A stretch of 56,400 bases of DNA from Bacteroidales bacterium (GTDB lineage Bacteria; Bacteroidota; Bacteroidia; Bacteroidales; F082), in contig WGDP01000205.1 in assembly GCA_015493215.1 (NCBI GenBank), positions 1-56,400 on the forward strand, read 5' to 3'. The notes beneath the pieces were generated by a model that did no database searches, was not told the origin of the DNA, and saw only the letters and a list, made by a program, of their open reading frames with translations. Positions 37,484 through 48,213 of the stretch are shown here, piece after piece (within the stretch, counting starts at the first letter, position 1; each line of letters starts with the position of its first letter). Both the position numbers and the translations under genes were made by a program.

Positions 37484-38119
37484 TTAGCAGCCTCCCGATG
37501 CGGCTTTCTCTTTTTTCTTGCGGCGAACCTTTACTTTTTTTGTGGTTTTAGTACTGGTTTCATTGGCAACAGTTCCCGATTTTTTGGCCACTTCGGCAAA
37601 ATCGTATTTGGCAATGCCTTTTAAACAGGTTTTTTCTGTTTTCTGTAAATTATCTTTGTGTGATGCGTAATAGTTATACCCACCCAGCAGCACAAAAGTA
37701 TTTTCGTATCCTATCTGCCGGAATAACATCCAGGCACCATTGGCCTGCAGTTGGTCGTCGTGATAAAAAACCACTTTAACGCCGCTTTTTTTCCATTGAT
37801 CCATCTGTTTAATGTTATCTTTTTCCAGCAACTTAACGGCTGTAATGTTGATGGATCCGGGAATATGGCCTCTGGCAAAATCAAAATTATTTCTAATGTC
37901 AATTAATACCACTTCTCCCGATTTATCGTTGAGCACCTTTGCCAACTCATAAGGATGAAAACAACCCTTATGGCCTATTACCATATCCACTGTTTGCTGT
38001 GGTGTTAAAGCATATTTAAATCGTGGTTTTTTCATGGTTATCCATCCAAAAACAATAACCAATGCAAAAAGCAAAATGGTAATTAATGTTCGTTTTGGGT
38101 TTCTTTCGTGTACATGCAT
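37484..38119 (-). CDS. Membrane-anchored rhodanese-like protein without canonical active-site Cys; basic C-terminal tail ending SGGC
   Basis: N-terminal TM helix and rhodanese fold markers (VVLIDIRNNFDFARGHIPGSINI ... VVFYHDDQLQANGAW). The catalytic-loop Cys position holds His. The C-terminus is KVRRKKKEKAASGGC*. Confidence 0.7.
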   Translation of the reverse strand: MHVHERNPKRTLITILLFALVIVFGWITMKKPRFKYALTPQQTVDMVIGHKGCFHPYELAKVLNDKSGEVVLIDIRNNFDFARGHIPGSINITAVKLLEKDNIKQMDQWKKSGVKVVFYHDDQLQANGAWMLFRQIGYENTFVLLGGYNYYASHKDNLQKTEKTCLKGIAKYDFAEVAKKSGTVANETSTKTTKKVKVRRKKKEKAASGGC

Positions 38120-38140
38120 AACTAATGTTTTAAAATATGA

Positions 38141-38761
38141 TTAACAACCTCCTGAAGCGGCTTTTTCTTTTTTCTTTCTTCTTACCTTTATCTTGGCTTT
38201 TTTAACACCGGTATCGGTTTTAATGCTGTTTCCTCCGGTAAAGTACATTCCGGCGGCTTTGCGAAACTGATAAGTTTCAAAAGCCGTTTTTGGTGCCGTT
38301 TCAGGAGGTTCAACCGGGTTAATGATGGTTTCTATCCAACAATTAAGGCCACCCTTCATCACATAAATGTTTTTGTAACCAAGCCTGGTTGAAATTACCC
38401 ACGCCTGATCGGACATAATATCATCGTTACTAAAAAATACGGCATTCATATCCTCAATGCCAAGGTTATCCTGGCCTTCCGGTGTAAGGATGTCTTTTAA
38501 CGGAACATTAACGGCATCGGGAAGCGAAAATTTATCGTATTCATCGGCAGGCCGTACATCAATCAACTCAAGGGTAGGGTCGTGTTCGATAATCATTTTT
38601 GCCACCTGATCGGTAGTTACGTACCTAGATGGCTGTGTAATATCAAGCAACAATTTTTCTGGCTTAACTTCATGACTAACCAACTGCTTTTTAGGAACAA
38701 AAAAGGTTCCCAGAGCCAAAAGCAGCATCAAAACGGTAAGAAATATATAATTTTTATTCAT
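38141..38761 (-). CDS. Membrane-anchored/secreted rhodanese-like protein without canonical active-site Cys; identical C-terminal tail ending SGGC
   Basis: N-terminal hydrophobic segment and rhodanese markers (LELIDVRPADEYDKFSLPDAVNVPL ... AVFFSNDDIMSDQAW). The catalytic-loop Cys position holds Ser. The C-terminus is KVRRKKKEKAASGGC*. Confidence 0.7.
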   Translation of the reverse strand: MNKNYIFLTVLMLLLALGTFFVPKKQLVSHEVKPEKLLLDITQPSRYVTTDQVAKMIIEHDPTLELIDVRPADEYDKFSLPDAVNVPLKDILTPEGQDNLGIEDMNAVFFSNDDIMSDQAWVISTRLGYKNIYVMKGGLNCWIETIINPVEPPETAPKTAFETYQFRKAAGMYFTGGNSIKTDTGVKKAKIKVRRKKKEKAASGGC

Positions 38762-38765
38762 AATA

Positions 38766-39368
38766 TTAGAATTTATATTCTTTGGTATTTTTTCTTACTT
38801 TCTTTTCTATTTCGGCACTAACCCAAAAAGCGGCAAGAGCAATTACCGTAAACCCAAAGGCAAACCATGGAGCTGCAATGCCGGTTACATCGGTAAGTGT
38901 AACATTGCCCATGCTGCCACTGTAATAGTAATCTTTAAACAGCGGAAAGCTCTCTCCGAAAATAAAGATTCCTATAAATAGACCGATGGCAAAGAAAAGG
39001 GCATCCATTTTACCAATGGCAATGGCGGTAAAACTGGTGCCGGGGCAAAAACCGCCCATGACAAAGCCAATGCCCATGATTACCGATCCCAGTATCATTG
39101 GCGACAGATAGGTTGGCAAAATAAATATTTTAGACAGGTCGAGCCATCCAAAATAATCGAAATAGAGTAATCCGACCATTGCAACAATGACAGCGGTAAA
39201 AAAGACGCGAAGCACCACAAAGTTGTAGCCATAAAAAACACCGGCTAAATTTCGGGATGACGAAAATCCGGAAGCTTCGAGCAAAAAACCGAAAGCGATA
39301 CCAATTAATATGGCAATTACAAAGTTCCAGTCTCCGGTAATTATTTCATTTGGTATTAAAGGTCCCAT
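38766..39368 (-). CDS. YeeE/YedE-family sulfur-compound transporter, half-size subunit
   Basis: Polytopic, Gly-rich membrane protein with the conserved Cys motif MGGFCPGTS typical of the YeeE/YedE (sulphur transport) family. Confidence 0.8.
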   Translation of the reverse strand: MGPLIPNEIITGDWNFVIAILIGIAFGFLLEASGFSSSRNLAGVFYGYNFVVLRVFFTAVIVAMVGLLYFDYFGWLDLSKIFILPTYLSPMILGSVIMGIGFVMGGFCPGTSFTAIAIGKMDALFFAIGLFIGIFIFGESFPLFKDYYYSGSMGNVTLTDVTGIAAPWFAFGFTVIALAAFWVSAEIEKKVRKNTKEYKF

Positions 39369-39388
39369 TGTACTATATTTTTATAAGA

Positions 39389-39922
39389 TTATATCCACAG
39401 TTTTCTAAAAAAGTAAGCCACGGCATAACCGGTTCCGAATATTCCGAGCATAACAATTACACCGCCAAACGAGAAGGATGCAGAACCCACCAAAGCAGCA
39501 CCGCTGGTACAACCTCGTCCAAACTGGCTGCCAAAACCAAACAGTGCGCCGCCAAGGACGGCAAAAATCAGACGTTTTGAACTTGTAGTGTGTTTACCAT
39601 GTTCAATTCTGAATTTTTTAATCCTTCCGTAAATAACACCCGATAACAATCCTCCTATTAATATTCCAAACGATTCATAAACCAGCCAGTTGTTCATGGG
39701 TGATTTATCTTTGGGAATATATTTACTAAAGTAGGGATTGTTTTCGGCATGTTGCGGAGCAATTGCGTTTACAGTAGTTACAACAGTACTTTTAACCGAG
39801 CCACTGGCACCAAGGCCGCGTCCGGTAATATAAAAAGTAACAACAACCAACAGCCCCAGTAAAACGCCCCCGAAATAGGGGTTCAGATAGTGAGGCTTTT
39901 CATTAATTTTATGTTTATTCAT
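39389..39922 (-). CDS. YeeE/YedE-family sulfur-compound transporter, half-size subunit
   Basis: Polytopic membrane protein with GRGLGASG and the FGRGCTSGAALVG Cys motif of the YeeE/YedE family. It pairs with the adjacent half. Confidence 0.8.
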   Translation of the reverse strand: MNKHKINEKPHYLNPYFGGVLLGLLVVVTFYITGRGLGASGSVKSTVVTTVNAIAPQHAENNPYFSKYIPKDKSPMNNWLVYESFGILIGGLLSGVIYGRIKKFRIEHGKHTTSSKRLIFAVLGGALFGFGSQFGRGCTSGAALVGSASFSFGGVIVMLGIFGTGYAVAYFFRKLWI

Positions 39923-39939
39923 CGTTCAATGTATTTAAA

Positions 39940-40881
39940 TCAATATAAATATCTTGTAATCTGGCCTGCTTCAAGAATTACGAACCGGAAAATAAGGCCG
40001 CCCAATAGAATCAGAAATGAAGGTATCCAGACCGGTACATGGTATCCGCGCAGTTCAAAAATTTCGAGGGTAGCCGGAAAAGCCAGCCCCAGCAACACTA
40101 CGAAAACCCAGAAAGTAACGGTAAACTCACCACCCAAAAACAGTTTGGCAGCTTCGTGAGCAGCTTCCGATCCGGCCTGAAATCCCATAATCATGTGGAT
40201 GATAAAAAACAGCTCCACAAAAATAAATATCAGATCGATGCGGGTAAGCACCTTACGTTCGTATTTGCTTTTCGACATCCATATAATGGCTGCCAGTCCG
40301 GTTGAAAACCCGGAAACTAAAAACAGCGGGCCTAAAATGGAAGTATTCCACAATGGGCGGGCGTTAAAGGCCGACAATAAAATACCGGTATAAACACCAA
40401 GTATTACCGACAATATCATCATAATCCAGGCCATAGCCTTACGGTATTTTATCACAAAAGCTTCAAAGGTATCGAGCCAGGCAAAGGGCCATTTCCATTT
40501 CGGGAACACCTCTTTCAAGTAGGAGGCAGCCCAAACAATTGATAACGGAGTAATGGCCATCAACACCCAGGCACCCCACGACATGGGCGACTGAAAACGG
40601 ATAATGGTATAAAGCCTCCAAAAATAAAGTTTATGGTGAAGGTCCAAAAACAGGGCTCCTAAACCAATAACCAGGATAAACGGAACTAACATGGGCGCCC
40701 ATTTAATGGTTGCTTTCATGTCGCGTTCCTTGTGCATTACATAAAAATAGCCGGCAAAAAACAAGATACCTGCTGCGAGGCCACCCAAAAACAGGTAGAG
40801 TGGAATTTCCCACGTCCATAAGTGGAGGTAGGGGTCGATATGTGGAATATTACGTCCGCTGACAAATAATTCTTCTTTCAT
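39940..40881 (-). CDS. psrC: NrfD/PsrC-type polytopic membrane quinol-interacting subunit
   Basis: 313 aa with ~8 TM helices and an N-terminus (W.WEIPLYLFLGGLAAG) characteristic of NrfD-family anchors. It lies directly downstream of the FeS and molybdopterin subunits. Confidence 0.8.
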   Translation of the reverse strand: MKEELFVSGRNIPHIDPYLHLWTWEIPLYLFLGGLAAGILFFAGYFYVMHKERDMKATIKWAPMLVPFILVIGLGALFLDLHHKLYFWRLYTIIRFQSPMSWGAWVLMAITPLSIVWAASYLKEVFPKWKWPFAWLDTFEAFVIKYRKAMAWIMMILSVILGVYTGILLSAFNARPLWNTSILGPLFLVSGFSTGLAAIIWMSKSKYERKVLTRIDLIFIFVELFFIIHMIMGFQAGSEAAHEAAKLFLGGEFTVTFWVFVVLLGLAFPATLEIFELRGYHVPVWIPSFLILLGGLIFRFVILEAGQITRYLY

Positions 40882-40897
40882 TTTCCTGATATTTTAA

Positions 40898-41431
40898 TTA
40901 GGTAAGAAAATATAATTGTGGTTTGGTACCTGCTTCGGGAGCCAATACTTTCCATTTTCTGTTTTTCAATATCTTCGACACATCGCTGTTGGGGTCATCC
41001 AAATCACCAAAATGGAGGCAATGTGTAGGACAAACATCCACACAGGCCGGATTTTCGCCATCGGTAACACGGTGTACACAAAAGGTACATTTATCAACAT
41101 AACCTTCCGGGTGGGGATAACGGGCATCGTAAGGGCACGACTCAATACAGGCACCACAGCCAATACACTCGTCATGGGTTACCAATACGATACCGCCATC
41201 AACAATATGACTGGCGCCCGTGGGGCAGCACCTTACACAGGGAGCGTTTTCGCAATGATTGCATCGCTCCGAACGTAATTCAATTTCCAATTTAGGATAG
41301 GTACCTGCCACGTTTTCCACAATCCAGTCGCGGCAATAGCCGTGGGGTACATTATTTTCGGTTTGACAGGCAACTACACAGTCGCCACATCCGACACATT
41401 TTTTGGTGTCAACCGCCATTGCGTATCTCAT
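40898..41431 (-). CDS. psrB: 4Fe-4S ferredoxin-type electron-transfer subunit (PsrB/PhsB-like)
   Basis: Four Cys clusters (CVGCGDCVVAC, CNHCENAPCVRCCP, CIGCGACIESCP, CTFCVHR...CVDVCP). Its start overlaps the psrA stop by 4 nt. Confidence 0.85.
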   Translation of the reverse strand: MRYAMAVDTKKCVGCGDCVVACQTENNVPHGYCRDWIVENVAGTYPKLEIELRSERCNHCENAPCVRCCPTGASHIVDGGIVLVTHDECIGCGACIESCPYDARYPHPEGYVDKCTFCVHRVTDGENPACVDVCPTHCLHFGDLDDPNSDVSKILKNRKWKVLAPEAGTKPQLYFLT

Positions 41432-43686
41432 GCGTTAACCTCCTTTCCTGGTTTTTCTTTAAGAAATGTAACAAAATTTCCGCGCATTCCGGTGCCGCCC
41501 ATTATTGGATCCATGTGTATTTTACTAACAAGTTTAGAATCGCTGGCACCATGGCCGTAAGCCCGGGTAAGTTTTTTATCGGTATGGCCAAATCCATGCA
41601 CGAGATATACCGAATCCCATCGTATTCGCTCGGTGACTCTGGCTTTTACAGGAAAGTCGGTAACAATTCCATCCTGATTTTTTAACCAAATATATTGGCC
41701 GTTTTCAATATCCCAAAGTTTGGCAACTTTCGGGTTAATCCACACGCTGTTTTCTTTCATCAAATCCCAAAGGTTATGGTTATTTGATGTTCTGGAAAAG
41801 GTGTGCATGGGTGCTCTGCCGTAATTCAGCCTGTAGTAACCGTCAGCAGGCTCTTCATGATGGGTATATTTAGGCATCGGGTCGTATCCCTCCATTTCCA
41901 GCTCGGTAGAATAAAGCTCAATTTTTCCTGTGTTGGTATTAAACTCAAAATCTTCAAGGTTTTGAAGGAAATAGAGGTCATCAAATTCGCGGTTGAATTT
42001 TTTAACCCCGATACGTTTCATCTCCTCCAATGAGGAACCAACTTTTTTCAACTGCCAATCAAGGACATCTTCGTAGTTTTCGTAATTGAAATAATCTCCC
42101 AAACCTAATCTTTTGGCCAATTCTTTTGCAATCCACCAGCCCGGTTTGGTTTCGTGTTTTGGTTCGGCAGCAGGCATTCGCAATGCGATGTATGGTTCCC
42201 GGTGGGGTGACGTACGAATGGGGTCGTAGCGTTCGAGGTAGGTGCATTCGGGAAGCACCACATCAGCCAGTTGAACAATGTCCATGGGCATGGTGTCGAT
42301 AACTACTAAGAAATCGAGATGACTGATGGCTTCCAGTGTTTTTTTCTGATCGGGCAACGAAGCCATCAGGTTGGTGCCATAAACTATCCATCCGCGCAGG
42401 TGGCAATCCAAATCTGCGTTAGGAATGGATGCGTCGCAAATTCCGGTTGACAACACCTCTGTTACAAGTTTATATTTACCGGGAGGATAAGCATCTCTCC
42501 ACGATCTTTTTGGTTTAGGATAAGGTGGTGCCGGGTATTTGGGCAGATGTACCTTTTCAGGGTTATAAAATCCGCCACGACGGCCCCAGGAGCCTAACAG
42601 GGCATTTACAATGGCAATGGCTCTTGACCTTTGGGTATCATCGCCGTACCAGGTAACATGTCTTCCGGGATGCACAAGCACTGCAGGTGATGCAGCGGCC
42701 ATTTCACGAGCTGTTTTGCGGATAACATTGGGGTCGATGGTGGTAATACCGTAGGCCCACTCAGGCGTCATGTTTTTAACATGTTCTTTTAACTCTTTAA
42801 AGCCAAAAGTATATTTTTCAACATAAGCTTTATCATATAAATCTTCGTAAATAATAACATGCATCCAAGCTAACAAGAGAGCAATGTCAGTGGCGGGTTT
42901 AATGGGTAACCAGTATTTTGACTTGCTGGCGGCAGTGCTAAATCGTGGGTCAACGGTAATAATAGTTGCCCCCTGGTCTATGGCCTCCGACATTTCCTGT
43001 ATTTGGCCATTGTGCATATTTTCGCCAATGTGCGAACCAATTAAAACCAGACATTTGGTATCGCGGATATCGGTTCTTTCGGGCGACATAACATCTTCGC
43101 CATAAGTAGCTGTAAAAGCAACCTCGCGAGGTCCGCGGCATTGAGCAAACGAAGGTGCAGTAATGTTGGGTGAACCGTAAGCTTTTACCAGATGGCTAAA
43201 ATGTTTTCCGCCCGTTCCGTGCGAAAACAGTGCTAAACACTCAGGGCCATGTTCTAACCGAAGTTTATTCATTTTTTCAGCAACAAGGTTAAGTGCTTCA
43301 TCCCAGCTTGCTTTCCTGAAATACTGAGTGCCGTCGGCTTTTGTTTCTCTAATCAGAGGCGTTTGCAACCGGTCCTCGTCCCAATACATGCCTACTCCGC
43401 CGGTTCCACGCGGACAGAAGCGGCCGTTGCTGTGTGGGTCATCCTTATTACCAATTATTTTACGAATATTGCCCTTTTTATCTACATAAGTAAAACCTGC
43501 GCACTTCCAAAAGCAAACTTCGCAGAAAGTGGGATAATTGGTAAGCTCCTCATCACTCACAGGTGATGTGTCACCATCGGCAACAAACTGGGCAGTTACA
43601 CTGTCCCAGCTCAGAGCATGTAGGCCAATAGCGGCTGCTCCTACCCCTGCTGCACTAATTTTTATAAAATCCCTTCTTGTTTTCAT
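41428..43686 (-). CDS. psrA: Molybdopterin oxidoreductase catalytic subunit, polysulfide/thiosulfate reductase-like (PsrA/PhsA family), Tat-exported
   Basis: Twin-arginine signal MKTRRDFIKISAAGVGAAA, N-terminal FeS motif CEVCFWKC...C(PRG), and a candidate Mo-ligand Cys in SFAQCRGPR. Size is ~750 aa with a psrABC gene order. Confidence 0.85.
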   Translation of the reverse strand: MKTRRDFIKISAAGVGAAAIGLHALSWDSVTAQFVADGDTSPVSDEELTNYPTFCEVCFWKCAGFTYVDKKGNIRKIIGNKDDPHSNGRFCPRGTGGVGMYWDEDRLQTPLIRETKADGTQYFRKASWDEALNLVAEKMNKLRLEHGPECLALFSHGTGGKHFSHLVKAYGSPNITAPSFAQCRGPREVAFTATYGEDVMSPERTDIRDTKCLVLIGSHIGENMHNGQIQEMSEAIDQGATIITVDPRFSTAASKSKYWLPIKPATDIALLLAWMHVIIYEDLYDKAYVEKYTFGFKELKEHVKNMTPEWAYGITTIDPNVIRKTAREMAAASPAVLVHPGRHVTWYGDDTQRSRAIAIVNALLGSWGRRGGFYNPEKVHLPKYPAPPYPKPKRSWRDAYPPGKYKLVTEVLSTGICDASIPNADLDCHLRGWIVYGTNLMASLPDQKKTLEAISHLDFLVVIDTMPMDIVQLADVVLPECTYLERYDPIRTSPHREPYIALRMPAAEPKHETKPGWWIAKELAKRLGLGDYFNYENYEDVLDWQLKKVGSSLEEMKRIGVKKFNREFDDLYFLQNLEDFEFNTNTGKIELYSTELEMEGYDPMPKYTHHEEPADGYYRLNYGRAPMHTFSRTSNNHNLWDLMKENSVWINPKVAKLWDIENGQYIWLKNQDGIVTDFPVKARVTERIRWDSVYLVHGFGHTDKKLTRAYGHGASDSKLVSKIHMDPIMGGTGMRGNFVTFLKEKPGKEVNA

Positions 43687-43785: not shown

Positions 43786-44033
43786 TGTAATAATTTGTGA
43801 TAGTACATTGTTTGAACCGAATCTATATTAGGTTTCAAACACCTGATTATAGGTGAGTTATGAATTATGCCTCATATAAAGGGTGAGCTTTAACCCGTTG
43901 GTATTATGCAGATTACATTATTTATTTGAAAAGAAAATAAATTAGATATATTTTTATTGAAGTAATTTGGTTCTAAATTACTAAATGTTATGCTTTAAAC
44001 AAAAGAAGCTACAACTTGTTGGACACTCAAATA

Positions 44034-44061
44034 AAAAGGGCTACCAATCTGGCAGCCCTTT
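44034..44061 (-). terminator. Rho-independent terminator after the cytochrome b-PAS gene
   Basis: On the minus strand, aaagggctgcc-agat-tggtagccc is followed by tttttatttg, about 25 nt downstream of the stop at 44086. It separates the octaheme/cyt b unit from the psr operon. Confidence 0.55.
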
Positions 44062-44085
44062 CCTTCTTATTACCCAATTATTAAC

Positions 44086-45615
44086 CTAAACTTGCGCTTT
44101 TTTAAGCTCTTCTTCAGCTAGTTTGCGGTCTGTTTTATCAACAATATACCCTTCAACACCAACTATTTTACCATTTTCCACAACAGGAGTCATGGTAATA
44201 GAATGATATCCAATAGAGCCATCTTTACAGTAGCGACGGGTTATTCCCAAAGGAATGGTTTCGCCTTTCATTACTTTTTCAAACGATTTTTTTAGTTTAA
44301 CAAAGTCTTCTTTGGTACGGCTTAATGAATAATGCTTGCCAATAATTTCATCTTTGGAGTCATATTTATAAAGTCGGAGCCAGGTATCGTTAACTTCCTG
44401 ATAAAAACCCTGACTGTCAATACGGAAATAACCCACATCTTTAGATTTGACAATTTGCTCATAAAACACATTGGATTTGTGCTCTGTTGCAATTTTCTTT
44501 TCAAGGGCTTTTTCGGCTTCTACCTGAGGGGTGATGTCAATAATAAACCCTTCTAATCCTATAATATTTCCATCTTTATCTTTAATAGGTGCAGCTGAAA
44601 CGGTATGATAGCCAATGGTTCCGTCTTTACAAACGCGCTCAACCCTTTCGCCGGTAATTATTTCACCTGAAAGAATCTTATCAACTAATGCGGTTATCTG
44701 TTTTTTGCCTTCGGGGGTTCTGTCAAGCGTTACATCTGTTCCAATAACACTTTTTTTATCGGTACATTTGTAAAGCTTCAGCCAAACTTCGTTAACCTCC
44801 TGATACTTGTGATCTTTACCAATCCGGAAGTATCCCACATTGGAGCTAAGCAGTTTTTCGCGAAGTCGTGTTGATTCGGTGTTGATACCCAGCTTTTCAA
44901 CCACATCATCGAAAGCAGTTTCAAACACGCCCTCTTTTTCTATTGTTCCCCGGCCACTGATACCTTTTCTACTGGTAATTAGGGCAACTTTCAGGTTCTC
45001 TTCCAAAGCAAGTTCCGCATCTTCATCCGACATCTCTTCCCAACCGGTAAGCATTGCTTTGATAGCAGAAAGTGGCCTGTGTCCGGTAGTTGTTAAATAA
45101 ACATGGCCAATAACAAAACCTAACAAAAGAAAGGCTCCAAAAGTATGAAGGTAAGCAACAGGTTGGAGGCTTCCCACAACACTTTGGTCAACCAGCGAAA
45201 CATAATACATGTACACCAAACCGCTAAGCACGACGATTGGAATAATCAATATGCGAAGGCCTAAATAGGTCATGCGCTGTAACGGATTAAACTTATTGTA
45301 AACCGTTTTACGGGTGGGGTGGGGTGCATTACTAAAAATGCCGGTGATATAATACCTGATTTGTGCTTTTAGTAACTTGGTTGACGGAACGTACTGACGC
45401 CACTCGCCGGTTGTCATATTCCAAAACTGTGTAAAAATAATCAGAATGATAAATGACCAGGCCAGATTGCGGTGAATGAAAACTGCTTTTTCATATCCCA
45501 GCAATGTGTAAGTACCATGAACTTCAAAACCGGTAACAGCCAGCAATAAAATCAGCAAGGCCTGTGTCCAGTGCCAGAAACGTTCGTATCCTTTATATAT
45601 TAATACTTTTTTCAT
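44086..45615 (-). CDS. Fusion protein: PhsC/Ni-Fe-hydrogenase-type di-heme cytochrome b (4 TM) plus two tandem PAS domains
   Basis: The N-terminal ~200 aa carry ERFWHWTQALLILLLAVTG, IHRNLAW, NPLQRMTYLG and LHTFGAFLLLGFVIGHVYL (PF01292-like). Two ~120-aa repeats follow, starting VGYFRIGKDHKYQEVNEVWLKLYK and VGYFRIDSQGFYQEVNDTWLRLYK, each ending in a PAS-type ...DG(T/S)IGYH...G.(I/V)(I/V)G(L/V)EG(F/Y)I(I/V)D(I/K)T. Confidence 0.75.
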   Translation of the reverse strand: MKKVLIYKGYERFWHWTQALLILLLAVTGFEVHGTYTLLGYEKAVFIHRNLAWSFIILIIFTQFWNMTTGEWRQYVPSTKLLKAQIRYYITGIFSNAPHPTRKTVYNKFNPLQRMTYLGLRILIIPIVVLSGLVYMYYVSLVDQSVVGSLQPVAYLHTFGAFLLLGFVIGHVYLTTTGHRPLSAIKAMLTGWEEMSDEDAELALEENLKVALITSRKGISGRGTIEKEGVFETAFDDVVEKLGINTESTRLREKLLSSNVGYFRIGKDHKYQEVNEVWLKLYKCTDKKSVIGTDVTLDRTPEGKKQITALVDKILSGEIITGERVERVCKDGTIGYHTVSAAPIKDKDGNIIGLEGFIIDITPQVEAEKALEKKIATEHKSNVFYEQIVKSKDVGYFRIDSQGFYQEVNDTWLRLYKYDSKDEIIGKHYSLSRTKEDFVKLKKSFEKVMKGETIPLGITRRYCKDGSIGYHSITMTPVVENGKIVGVEGYIVDKTDRKLAEEELKKAQV

Positions 45616-45635: not shown

Positions 45636-47297
45636 TTAATGCTTCTTTTTACTGCTTGTAACTCTTAAGAATCCATGAATGCTTACTCCTAATAAAACAA
45701 GAATAAGAAAGATTAAGCCTGCGTTATCGAGCAGTGAACTTTTGTCTCTGCCGGGAAGGTAAAAACCGGTCAGGTTTTTTAACCTGCTGTCGGTGGCGTT
45801 ATGACAGTCGGCACATTCCAAGGCTTTATCTGAAGGCGAAACTTCATGACTCAGAGGCCAGATGGATTCCGTTTTCAGGAAAGAGTATTGTCCGCTAAAA
45901 GGTAAGCCGATATAGTCCATCCCTTTGGTACAGGCAACTTTCCAATTATAATCGGCCCAAAGGGCACCGCTTCCTTTTTCATGGCTGGCGAGCTTAGGTT
46001 GAATCAGGAGCATATTTACCGGGTCATAAGGTTGGGTTCCTCTCATGATTTTCACGGGCCATATTTTAGAGGGATGGTTGGGATCTGCCGGGTTAACATT
46101 ATCCTGATAAGAACCAAACAAAGGATTTAATATCAGCGGGTGAATAGTATCTTTAATTTTATCGTGAAGCAAGTGGTGATCAGCTGTTCCGTTGAACCAC
46201 ACATATTCAGGTTTTACATTTTTTTTAAAAACTGCACCACCATGACGGGAGTCATACTCGATGTCAACATCTTTATAGGTCTTTCCATCGTATGTGTAAG
46301 TGTGTCCGGGTATCTCTTCATCAAATATCGGTTTTCCGTTTTTATCCATTTTGGCAGCCGTGTTCCATGTCCAAATAATTTTGGTATGAAACATTTTCGC
46401 GTAAGTAGGAATATGACACGTTTGGCAAGCGATAGTTTTAAAGTGGTTGTTGAGCAATTCACTTTTATGCGGTTTAGCCGTGTGGCATTCCACACAGGTT
46501 GCTCGGTTGTTCGCGGAAGAAGCAACGGAATAGGCATGTCCCGTGATGTTATGATTTTCTGTTTTGTGACAATCCTGACAACGCATGTTTTTGGCATCTT
46601 TTCCTTTGGAAGCCATGTGGACATCAACATCGCGGGTGCAATTCAACAAGCCCATTTCCAAATCACCGTGTTTTACATTATTACCACCGCCACCAACAAA
46701 ATGGCAACCGCCACAATTATTTTTACGCGGTTGACCCACATGTTGGGCAATATTGTTTAAATCGGTACCCACGGCAGGCAAACCGGCTTTGGGATTGTTG
46801 GAACTTGTACATGGATTTGATTTGTGATAAGTTCCGGTATTATCGTGACAAACCACACAATCGATGTTGTTCTGGTTATGGAAATCAAAATTCTTATCAC
46901 CGTATCCATAGCCCGCGTGACACATGGAGCAGAGATTTTCATTCGAGTTGACTCCAATACAAAAATCATTCAGTAAATTCTTTTTTCCCAGGTTAAACAC
47001 GCCTCTTCCCGGAATAGTATCGCTTTGTTCCCATTTCCAGTGGGGTGTTTTCATAAACTCTTTTCCGCGGCCGTTGTGGCAACTCAGGCATGCTTTGGTC
47101 ATATCCTGAGGTGTTTCAAATTTTTGTTGTAAAACGGCAAATTTAGAGTGATCCACCGGAATGGAATCGTGTTTTAAGCTAATTTCCTTTGACGGGAAAT
47201 AATCCCTGTCCTTATCACCATTGTAGTTAAATACAATCCAAAGAATAATAATCCAGGGAATGATGATGATAAAAATAATTTCAAGTATCTTTTTCAT
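45636..47297 (-). CDS. Octaheme c-type cytochrome (tetrathionate-reductase Otr / multiheme nitrite-hydroxylamine reductase superfamily) with N- and C-terminal TM segments
   Basis: Eight CXXCH motifs (CLSCH, CSMCH, CVVCH, CGGCH, CQDCH, CVECH, CQTCH, CADCH). Seven lie in the first ~300 aa and the eighth lies ~190 aa further on. There are hydrophobic helices at both termini. Confidence 0.8.
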   Translation of the reverse strand: MKKILEIIFIIIIPWIIILWIVFNYNGDKDRDYFPSKEISLKHDSIPVDHSKFAVLQQKFETPQDMTKACLSCHNGRGKEFMKTPHWKWEQSDTIPGRGVFNLGKKNLLNDFCIGVNSNENLCSMCHAGYGYGDKNFDFHNQNNIDCVVCHDNTGTYHKSNPCTSSNNPKAGLPAVGTDLNNIAQHVGQPRKNNCGGCHFVGGGGNNVKHGDLEMGLLNCTRDVDVHMASKGKDAKNMRCQDCHKTENHNITGHAYSVASSANNRATCVECHTAKPHKSELLNNHFKTIACQTCHIPTYAKMFHTKIIWTWNTAAKMDKNGKPIFDEEIPGHTYTYDGKTYKDVDIEYDSRHGGAVFKKNVKPEYVWFNGTADHHLLHDKIKDTIHPLILNPLFGSYQDNVNPADPNHPSKIWPVKIMRGTQPYDPVNMLLIQPKLASHEKGSGALWADYNWKVACTKGMDYIGLPFSGQYSFLKTESIWPLSHEVSPSDKALECADCHNATDSRLKNLTGFYLPGRDKSSLLDNAGLIFLILVLLGVSIHGFLRVTSSKKKH

Positions 47298-47499: not shown

Positions 47500-48213
47500 C
47501 TAAATATGCTTGTCAAGATAGTATTTAAACTCAGGAAGCCTGTTTTCATCGCAATGTTTTGAATAAACTGCGATAAAGTTCATCATCTCATCGCGGCGCG
47601 CCAACATGGCATAGGCAGCATTAAACATATTAAACCCGCAATTGTTTTTAATTTGTTCAATAACACTTTCAAATTCGTCAAATTCGAGGTTTACGGGCAA
47701 TTTAATAAAATGACGATTTTTGTCGTTTACATCGGCATAAACTCCTTCCGAAATTAAAGTCATTTCAGCATGTTTTTTAAAATGCACAATGCTATTATAG
47801 GGCTGAATATGTTTTGTGTGTTTAACAAATTCAACATCCAATTGTTTTAAATCATCTAAAAACGGCTTAATGCTGCTTACTTCCTGGGTTCTTATGCGTA
47901 TGCAATTATGCTGTTTATTTAGAAAGCTCAACTGTCCGGGCGAAATATGAAGGTTAATATTTAATTTATTCCGCACCTTAAACGAATGTTGGATAACCCA
48001 ATCCTGAAAACAAGTAATGGGATGTTTTGTAATAATGTAGAGGTGATGGTCGCTGGCGTGTTCAAGGTTTTCGGGAAACCCGTTTTTTGAAAAGTAGCCG
48101 GGTTCGGGATCGGATTCAATAATTAAAACTTCATTTTTTGTTGAAAAAGGAGACAGTGCCAAGTCCAACCGCTCGGCAAAACATACATACCCTTCTATAT
48201 TATTGTTTTTCAT
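47500..48213 (-). CDS. Hypothetical protein (no recognisable motif)
   Basis: 237-aa ORF with no competing frame and no signal peptide. I could not match it to any family by eye. Confidence 0.45.
   Translation of the reverse strand: MKNNNIEGYVCFAERLDLALSPFSTKNEVLIIESDPEPGYFSKNGFPENLEHASDHHLYIITKHPITCFQDWVIQHSFKVRNKLNINLHISPGQLSFLNKQHNCIRIRTQEVSSIKPFLDDLKQLDVEFVKHTKHIQPYNSIVHFKKHAEMTLISEGVYADVNDKNRHFIKLPVNLEFDEFESVIEQIKNNCGFNMFNAAYAMLARRDEMMNFIAVYSKHCDENRLPEFKYYLDKHI

Follow-up and report, generated by a model that had tools for sequence, protein, structure and literature searches.

A cytochrome b fused to PAS domains as the very probable membrane anchor of an OTR-family octaheme cytochrome, and a possible gate on its electron supply

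What does a respiratory membrane cytochrome b do with two PAS domains when no output domain follows them? The question is raised by a gene in a 56,400-nucleotide (nt) stretch of DNA from a Bacteroidales bacterium (GTDB lineage F082; contig WGDP01000205.1 of GenBank assembly GCA_015493215.1), which is called the window below; all positions refer to it, and the loci of homologs are numbered from L001. The open reading frame (ORF) at 44086..45615 on the minus strand begins with ATG and encodes 509 amino acids (aa). Its product consists of four parts, all encoded on that strand: a cytochrome b domain (aa 1-195, 45031..45615; PF01292, AlphaFold2 (AF2) helices, invariant columns and a profile match to HyaC), a putatively cytoplasmic linker (aa 196-253, 44857..45030; pairwise identity and the predicted local distance difference test (pLDDT) of AF2), a first PAS domain (aa 254-372, 44500..44856; Pfam PAS_4, 218 bits with our own hidden Markov model (HMM), and per-column conservation) and a second PAS domain (aa 387-505, 44101..44457; Pfam PAS_9, PAS and PAS_3, a residue signature described below, AF2 and Foldseek). 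We based this layout on the ORF and on Pfam and NCBIfam domains, and more than 500 homologous clusters share it. The second PAS domain runs into a short C-terminal helix and the stop codon. In line with the initial annotation of this gene, Pfam and NCBIfam scans found no kinase, GGDEF, HTH, MCP or any further module in the 509-aa protein. Likewise, neither it nor the 120 homologs listed contains HisKA/HATPase, MCP signal, GGDEF/EAL or HTH domains, and proteins of the family end no more than ~20 aa past the last PAS domain. An AF2 model built with 81 homologs (mean pLDDT 73, predicted template modelling score (pTM) 0.40) displays four long helices, an ill-defined linker and two canonical PAS folds; a single-sequence search of the PDB with the whole protein gave zero matches.

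The same architecture recurs in a large family. A homology search yielded 532 protein clusters at E ≤ 1e-5, of which the best 120 were listed; 117 of these combine PF01292 with PAS and nothing else, and the other three are short and partial. The proteins fall into four length classes: ~380 aa (one PAS), ~440 aa (short linker, two PAS), ~510 aa (long linker, two PAS; the class of the window protein) and ~636 aa (three PAS). When one genome was scanned for each species, 258 genomes contained relatives. Among the best 80 of these 258, all but one are labelled as Bacteroidota or a member group, with one labelled only 'Acetofilamentum sp.' and one a 'Chlorobiota' metagenome-assembled genome (MAG); the labels include Bacteroidales, Lentimicrobiaceae, Draconibacterium, Marinilabiliaceae, Flavobacteriaceae, Paludibacter, Lutibacter and Maribellus. 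Read at face value, the isolate labels of several relatives point to sulfidic sites (Guaymas, Zodletone, sulfidic caves). The closest locus, L004, comes from a Bacteroidales MAG and is 99% identical to the window. Database names of the listed relatives are generic ('PAS domain S-box protein', 'cytochrome b/b6 domain-containing protein' and, once, 'thiosulfate reductase cytochrome b subunit'). The initial annotation knew of no description of such an arrangement, and our full-text searches brought up no account of a cytochrome b-PAS or OTR-PAS arrangement either (OTR, octaheme tetrathionate reductase); the papers returned concern other topics, to judge from titles and abstracts.

The N-terminal part is, as had been read from its motifs, a four-helix, His-containing domain of PF01292. 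The Ni_hydr_CYTB profile matches aa 7-191 (E 1.7e-22, 80.5 bits against a cut-off of 30.1) over profile positions 2-179 of 179, and AF2 places transmembrane (TM) helices at about aa 9-33, 41-69, 111-136 and 151-174. Four histidines (H15, H48, H157, H171) never vary, either among 81 fused proteins or within a mixed set of 18; H33, H99, N110, P111 and Q113 of the same domain are likewise invariant. The motifs RFWHW, IHRN, NPLQR and LHTF...GHVYL, quoted in the initial annotation, hold the family-invariant H15, H48, N110/Q113, H157 and H171. A profile of the domain matches E. coli HyaC (4gd3_A) with E 7e-6; the four histidines align, and NPLQ of the fusion protein (N110, P111, Q113) falls on NPiaQ of HyaC. 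His15 and His171 would be the ligands of a cytoplasmic-side heme, and His48 and His157 those of a periplasmic-side heme. FdnI, HyaC and PhsC indeed resemble the window protein in having four TM helices, four histidines with the TM4 pair 14 residues apart, and an N-x-x-Q motif.

The likeness ends at the level of the superfamily. The gene had been described as 'PhsC/hydrogenase type', of which the PF01292 assignment stands, but the 509-aa protein scores below the equivalog cut-offs for PhsC (NF011582, 92.6 versus 204), HyaC (TIGR02125, 47.3 versus 121.5) and FdnI (TIGR01583, 32.6 versus 115.85). It belongs to PF01292 at the superfamily level only. We also ruled out that it serves as the PhsC subunit of a Psr/Phs-like enzyme encoded nearby: in addition to the sub-cut-off score, that enzyme has a PsrC of the NrfD type, a terminator intervenes, and the conserved partner is a different protein, an OTR-family cytochrome.

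This partner is encoded 20 nt upstream on the same strand (45636..47297, minus strand). It is an octaheme c-type cytochrome of 553 aa with an N-terminal hydrophobic segment and eight CXXCH motifs, and it matches TIGR04315 with 506.8 bits against a cut-off of 375 and PF11783 with E 2.3e-49; the octaheme cytochrome that had been noted at this distance is thus an OTR-family protein. The partnership proposed for it holds in every locus examined: an OTR homolog lies immediately upstream, on the same strand, in 83 of 83 cytochrome b-PAS loci, mostly with a gap of 8-30 nt. In all 83 partner proteins the tail has the same order, FY(L/M)PGRD, a TM helix and a Lys-rich end. In the window this C-terminal TM helix reads FYLPGRD...LIFLILVLLGVSIHGFLRV-KKKH (45639..45740, minus strand). 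A His and an Arg (GV.IH..LR) lie near the cytoplasmic end of the helix in every tail listed, and the helix probably packs against the cytochrome b; the His may serve a heme or the quinone site. The periplasmic partner subunits FdnH and HyaA also contribute an extra C-terminal TM helix to their complexes, as the OTR helix would. By contrast with FdnI, HyaC and PhsC, the partner here is a multiheme c-type cytochrome rather than an Fe-S subunit, and the PAS extension is additional.

A search with the cytochrome b domain alone against 1.8 billion representative proteins revealed 887 relatives of several kinds: stand-alone proteins of ~200 aa, proteins of 700-900 aa with a C-terminal cytochrome b, and a few other fusions. 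Two of three long relatives checked are single chains of OTR and cytochrome b; in one of them, P0125 (aa ~520-575), sequence inspection revealed that the same TM helix joins the two domains. Such single chains argue, by the Rosetta-stone principle, that the products of the two window genes belong to one complex. Among PAS-less relatives, 80 metagenomic loci encode a cytochrome b that stops 0-26 aa past the domain (193-223 aa), in agreement with the earlier statement that it is normally a stand-alone anchor; where upstream DNA is available, an OTR gene lies directly before it or is fused to it, with one exception. A further member of the same cytochrome b subfamily, P0256 (734 aa), carries an N-terminal cytochrome b followed by NapC/NirT-type and c3/c7-type multiheme domains. 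We consider it very probable that the 509-aa protein is a quinol-oxidising di-heme anchor dedicated to an OTR-family octaheme reductase, and not a PhsC.

On which side of the membrane do the PAS domains lie? Lys and Arg residues gather in three places: the N-terminus, the loop between TM2 and TM3, and the segment that follows TM4. The positive-inside rule would therefore put both termini, and with them the PAS domains, in the cytoplasm. FdnI and HyaC have the same topology, with both termini in the cytoplasm. Their tether would then hold the PAS domains close to several features: the heme on the cytoplasmic side (H15/H171), the motif with N110 and Q113, the loop with invariant H99-P100, and the His and Arg with which the OTR helix ends. 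The core residues ERFWHW, H48, HP, NPLQ, H157 and H171 are common to fused and stand-alone cytochromes b. Positions that are conserved among the fused proteins and differ from the stand-alone ones are enriched in the cytoplasmic TM2-TM3 loop (K83, Q85, I90, T101, K103, Y106, N107, F109).

The C-terminal ~300 residues form two related PAS repeats, as had been suggested. PAS_9, PAS_4, PAS and PAS_3 of Pfam all exceed their cut-offs over aa 257-365 and 385-495, and the NCBIfam model TIGR00229 ('sensory box') matches two stretches with 91 bits against 22.9. The two units are 43% identical to each other over 117 aa (E 6e-33). Their strands and helices are modelled by AF2 with pLDDT ~80-88, and Foldseek matched the C-terminal half to the tandem-PAS structures of LOV-HK, MmoS, FixL, DosP and NifL with E values of 1e-12 to 1e-14. 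The preceding linker has an acidic start, is partly helical, and falls below pLDDT 50 over aa 214-257; it is absent or short in the ~440-aa class. Within the ~510-aa class, mean pairwise identity is 0.81 for the cytochrome b domain, 0.74 for the linker and 74-75% for the PAS domains, whereas the 14 residues between the PAS units vary freely, with 43% identity.

The 148 PAS units examined, from 81 proteins, are mutual closest relatives and share the signature G-Y (strand A), V-N, W..Y-K, G-x-H, R, G-E, R-x-C-x-D-G, G-x-H, P, E-G-F-I-x-D, in which a dozen polar residues (His, Arg, Cys, Asp, Asn, Tyr, Trp) are nearly invariant. The second PAS domain of the window protein has the full set (Y396, N409, W412, Y416, K417, H428, R433, R461, C463, D465, H471 and E488-G-Y-I-x-D493). 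In the first, Asp294 replaces the first pocket His, which most orthologs retain. In the three-PAS class, units 2 and 3 share 70% identity, and each shares 67-69% with unit 2 of the ~510-aa class. Within the ~440-aa class the two units show 47% identity, but set against the units of the ~510-aa class they reach just ~38-41%. The number of PAS copies has thus changed repeatedly by tandem duplication, in at least three events. Because the PAS domains are 74-75% conserved, the signature is kept in 148 units and the copy number changed with the signature kept, the PAS domains and linker appear to be under purifying selection, functional rather than decaying.

The conserved residues appear to line a pocket. 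In an alignment with the LOV domain of YtvA, GKNCRFLQ pairs with GKHYSLSR, H428 with N61 and H471 with N94, a flavin-binding Asn, such that His, Tyr and Arg of the family sit at the positions of Asn, Cys and Gln in LOV. The site maps to pocket positions, yet it does not look like a LOV site, and we ruled out a LOV/flavin photoreceptor by the absence, in this alignment, of the GXNCRFLQ motif and of the flavin Asn. As far as the residues tell, the signature is neither LOV-like nor FixL-like (the heme type with a His on F-alpha). They are compatible with heme b (His/His or His/Cys), a metal site or a thiol-based redox switch.

These observations suggest a mechanism that we put forward as a plausible working model, with some way to go before we would call it likely: the protein would be the membrane subunit of a menaquinol:octaheme-cytochrome reductase whose PAS domains gate its electron flow. 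Residues 1-195 would form a HyaC/FdnI-type four-helix, two-heme cytochrome b that associates with the C-terminal TM helix of OTR. Menaquinol would be oxidised near the cytoplasmic-side heme (H171, N110, Q113), and its electrons would pass through the two b hemes across the membrane to the eight c hemes of the periplasmic OTR and on to a periplasmic acceptor. Because psr, rhodanese and YeeE genes lie nearby, this acceptor would most likely be tetrathionate or a related sulfur compound; nitrite or hydroxylamine would be possible. The ~300 C-terminal residues, that is, the linker and the two PAS domains, would bind a ligand or cofactor in the conserved pocket and act as a built-in input module that tunes or gates the flow, with the cytochrome b/OTR complex itself as the 'output domain'. 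There would be reason for such control: by the FdnI/PhsC paradigm, quinol oxidation on the cytoplasmic side with electrons moving outward should dissipate the membrane potential, and an unregulated branch would be costly. We favor gating because the family lacks a transmitter, the PAS domains and linker are under apparent purifying selection, the signature is of the ligand type, the copy number varies as in a sensor array, and a second signalling domain was fused to the same anchor independently.

This second fusion carries a REC receiver domain in place of the PAS domains. Two proteins, P0171 and P0144, which are 44% identical to each other, have a cytochrome b of the same subfamily (41-45% identity) followed by a C-terminal REC and no other output domain, and their genes lie directly downstream of an OTR gene, which they abut or with which they share 4 nt. 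The source of P0171 is Magnetococcales MAGs, and that of the closest cluster of stand-alone cytochromes b is Ignavibacteriales. The OTR/cytochrome b-REC loci are L164:4397-7044, L165, L166 and L167:1078-3759. In both lineages an ankyrin-repeat gene precedes the pair directly, and in one of them (L164 and L165) a GAF-HisKA-HATPase-REC hybrid kinase is encoded nearby. A metagenome scan seeded with cytochrome b-REC recovered no more REC fusions; it returned stand-alone cytochromes b only, which we used as the control set. REC and PAS are both typical input modules. At least two lineages appear to have placed a typical signalling input domain, and nothing else, on the cytoplasmic end of the same OTR anchor. 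The independent REC fusion favors, without proving, signalling domains that gate electron flow. It differs from the PAS fusion in that a receiver implies control by a kinase rather than by a bound ligand, in its phylum, and in the ankyrin-repeat gene that takes the upstream place of the 237-aa gene described below. More tentatively still, a signal-gated electron valve may have been invented twice for OTR, with PAS (ligand or redox) in Bacteroidota and REC (phosphorylation) in Magnetococcales; the respiratory complex would then be the output of a one-component or a two-component system.

How do these features compare with systems already described? In Thermosulfurimonas dismutans, an OTR with an adjacent cytochrome b anchor has been proposed (TDIS_1882/TDIS_1883; PMC4911364), with the same gene pair in the same order, PF11783/TIGR04315 and then PF01292. 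The common pairs of OTR and stand-alone cytochrome b share with the window the core cytochrome b residues and the C-terminal TM helix of OTR. The stand-alone partner ends 0-26 aa past the domain, whereas the window protein adds a 58-aa linker and two PAS domains, ~310 aa that are predicted to be cytoplasmic. Otr of Shewanella oneidensis is described, in papers that cite Mowat 2004, as a characterised soluble enzyme. The PAS array on the OTR anchor, cytoplasmic by our prediction, is apparently what is new here; OTR/cytochrome b modules, PF01292 cytochromes and PAS domains were known before.

Two further groups of proteins resemble parts of the arrangement. CbcL is a PF01292-type cytochrome b fused to a multiheme c-type domain. 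Like the window pair, it couples a HydC/FdnI-type cytochrome b directly to periplasmic c hemes as a quinol oxidase, and the OTR::cytochrome b and cytochrome b::NapC/NirT fusions found here are its analogues; however, CbcL lacks a cytoplasmic sensor domain, and in the window the c hemes belong to a polypeptide of their own, from another protein family. CbcL of Geobacter is listed among inner-membrane quinol oxidoreductases (PMC11492766). On the sensory side, Aer, ArcB, NifL and MmoS likewise place cytoplasmic PAS domains at the membrane to read the respiratory or redox state. The conserved PAS Cys of the window family recalls the quinone-sensitive Cys of ArcB. Each of these proteins has a transmitter (HAMP-MCP, a kinase, or a partner such as NifA), whereas the only other module of the window protein is one for electron transfer.

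The two genes appear to form their own transcription unit, separate from psrABC downstream. An intrinsic terminator directly follows the stop codon of the cytochrome b-PAS gene (44028..44063, minus strand; a 14-bp GC-rich hairpin and a U run, dG -21.4 kcal/mol, z -3.5), and 400 nt that include this strong terminator part the gene from psrABC. An Rfam scan of 43.5-48.6 kb found only a match to the small RNA MicX at 43932..44073 (minus strand; 25 bits against a gathering threshold of 75, E 0.017), which we treat as chance: it is below threshold and overlaps the terminator hairpin and an AT-rich spacer. A sigma-70 promoter scan gave 25 sites versus 16.2 ± 4.9 expected, an uninformative result from a kind of scan that does not cover Bacteroidota promoters.

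Beyond the terminator lies a sulfur cluster (37484..43686, minus strand) that encodes a PsrA/PhsA-like molybdoenzyme, a 4Fe-4S subunit, an NrfD-type anchor, a split YeeE/YedE-like transporter and two rhodanese-like proteins. The Psr/Phs-like molybdoenzyme thus comes with its own NrfD-type anchor. In ~13-15 of 83 loci the psrABC-yeeE-rhodanese cluster sits no more than 7 kb from the otr pair; in L001 the rhodanese genes follow the pair directly. Its position beside the otr pair points to respiration of sulfur compounds. The YeeE/YedE-type (Sulf_transp) transporter is encoded by two half-size genes, of 177 and 200 aa (38766..39922, minus strand), and L002 has the same split. The two rhodanese-like proteins (37484..38119 and 38141..38761, both minus strand) have an identical type of tail, ...VRRKKKEKAASGGC. 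Most homologs (L002, L005-L007, L031, L038, L040, L047, L058, L072) have a basic stretch and a C-terminal (S/Q/E/A)GGC, a tail also present on a second rhodanese family of ~350 aa near the otr pair elsewhere. It may be a putative C-terminal Cys arm for sulfane sulfur.

On the other side of the pair, 200 nt upstream of the OTR gene, lies a gene for a conserved 237-aa protein (47500..48213, minus strand). The gene opens the unit in some loci only, and its product, putatively cytoplasmic, may be a partner of the pair. This product has no Pfam or NCBIfam match, and from a reading of its N-terminus no obvious signal peptide; residues C11, C68, C192, C221 and H57 are invariant. AF2 models it with confidence (pLDDT 85.5, pTM 0.84) and the model has no significant fold match in the PDB. 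Its sequence homologs number only 21. Of 83 loci, 25 (among them L002:5590-6300 and L003:10926-11642) have a homolog beside the otr pair, in 20 cases immediately upstream and in the same orientation; such homologs occur with all four PAS-number classes, whereas none was found in 80 loci of stand-alone cytochromes b. Regulators of ~226 aa with an N-terminal Cys motif, which we call Crp/Fnr-like by reading their sequences alone, lie beside the pair in 23 of 83 loci; they either converge on it from just downstream or diverge from it just upstream, at times in 2-4 copies (L009:8548-9228, L014, L015, L017-L020, L038, L048, L067, L069, L075-L079); the window has no Crp/Fnr homolog. By eye, we also noticed a pair of genes for an 865-aa putative cytochrome b and a 130-aa putative Rieske-like protein with a twin-arginine translocation signal (L010:1085-4203 and 8 more loci), which in these 9 loci sits upstream of the otr pair at a distance of no more than 7 kb.

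Several points weigh against PAS gating of a menaquinol:octaheme-cytochrome reductase. Any contact of the PAS domains with the cytochrome b, and any influence on it, is predicted, and the AF2 model is unreliable as to how the domains are placed relative to each other (pTM 0.40; linker pLDDT <50). The residues of the TM2-TM3 loop that are specific to fused proteins may reflect a lineage difference, as all fused proteins come from one clade. N110 and Q113 are presumably the equivalents of the N-x-x-Q residues at the 2-heptyl-4-hydroxyquinoline N-oxide site of FdnI, an assignment based on the FdnI structure. For the PAS profile, the search for a close solved structure gave generic PAS domains only, none better than E 1e-3. 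Finally, the 237-aa neighbor and the frequent Crp/Fnr-type neighbors fit signalling to a partner equally well, and OTR enzymes are promiscuous in vitro (PMC4911364).

The strongest alternative is that the protein is a redox sensor, a view that the initial annotation had also entertained and that we regard as unlikely but worth keeping in sight. Hemes and quinone site, or a PAS cofactor, would read the state of the quinone pool or of OTR, and the PAS domains with the C-terminal helix would bind or release a separate partner that controls expression; the 237-aa protein, a regulator of Crp/Fnr type and an orphan kinase would be candidates. PAS-only signalling proteins do exist, and each PAS unit closes with a DIT-like motif and then a helix, through which PAS domains usually pass on their signal. 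The gene for the 237-aa protein, with its four invariant Cys, directly precedes the pair in 20 loci and lies close by in 5 more, as opposed to 0 of 80 stand-alone loci, and Crp/Fnr-like genes flank the pair in 23. However, the 237-aa gene is present in only ~25 of 63 loci with enough upstream DNA, and the window itself is without a Crp/Fnr homolog. Moreover, a dedicated sensor would not need the strict operon coupling to a catalytic octaheme enzyme that holds in 83 of 83 loci, and the REC fusion is better matched by a receiver that controls an attached effector than by a sensor.

It is improbable, in our estimate, that the PAS domains are purely structural and dimerise or cluster OTR/cytochrome b complexes, or aid their assembly, with no signal sensed. 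PAS domains commonly dimerise, the tandem-PAS structures matched by Foldseek are dimers, and a variable copy number is tolerated. Near-invariance of a dozen polar residues across 148 units and at least three duplications is not what one would expect of a pure scaffold, and the stand-alone relatives function without any such domain.

Slightly less probable again is an electron wire, in which the PAS domains would hold redox cofactors (heme b, flavin or a metal, bound via His/His/Cys/Asp) and pass electrons from a cytoplasmic donor, perhaps the Cys-rich 237-aa protein, to the periplasmic OTR, bypassing the quinone pool. The conserved residues are of the kind that ligates heme or metal and sit at the flavin-contact positions of LOV (H428/N61 and H471/N94 of YtvA), the signature is retained in every PAS copy, and the neighbor has four invariant Cys. 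Yet the quinone-site residues are invariant in fused and stand-alone proteins alike, and an array of 1-3 PAS copies on a poorly ordered linker of ~15 to ~60 aa is hard to square with fixed transfer distances. In addition, a REC domain, as found in the sister fusion, cannot carry electrons, and the first PAS domain of the window protein has lost its pocket His (D294).

There is a negligible chance that separate genes for a cytochrome b and a PAS protein were merged by a frameshift or an assembly error, since the ORF is unbroken in 83 loci and at least 120 clusters from independent assemblies, at 40-99% identity and including genomes of 4-5 Mb; the worries voiced at the outset, of an artificial fusion and of repeats that fail the PAS models, were both unfounded, the latter since PAS_9, PAS_4, PAS, PAS_3 and TIGR00229 all match.

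Control of bacterial anaerobic respiratory branches is generally placed almost wholly at transcription. If PAS gating of the cytochrome b/OTR complex is true, a quinol dehydrogenase subunit that carries its own sensors and no transmitter would represent direct post-translational control of electron flux, and the REC domain on the same subunit in an unrelated lineage strengthens the case. The system is tractable: the family is large, some members lie on contigs of 4-5 Mb, PAS-less natural controls exist, and some carrier MAGs are assigned to genera with cultured members (Draconibacterium, Maribellus, Paludibacter). The PAS signature and the conserved 237-aa protein, with a fold unmatched in the PDB, flag a PAS ligand class of a possibly new kind and a candidate component to go with it. 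More broadly, the finding would clarify how enzymes of the OTR family connect to the quinone pool; these enzymes occur widely in sulfidic habitats, and their genes serve as markers for tetrathionate reduction.

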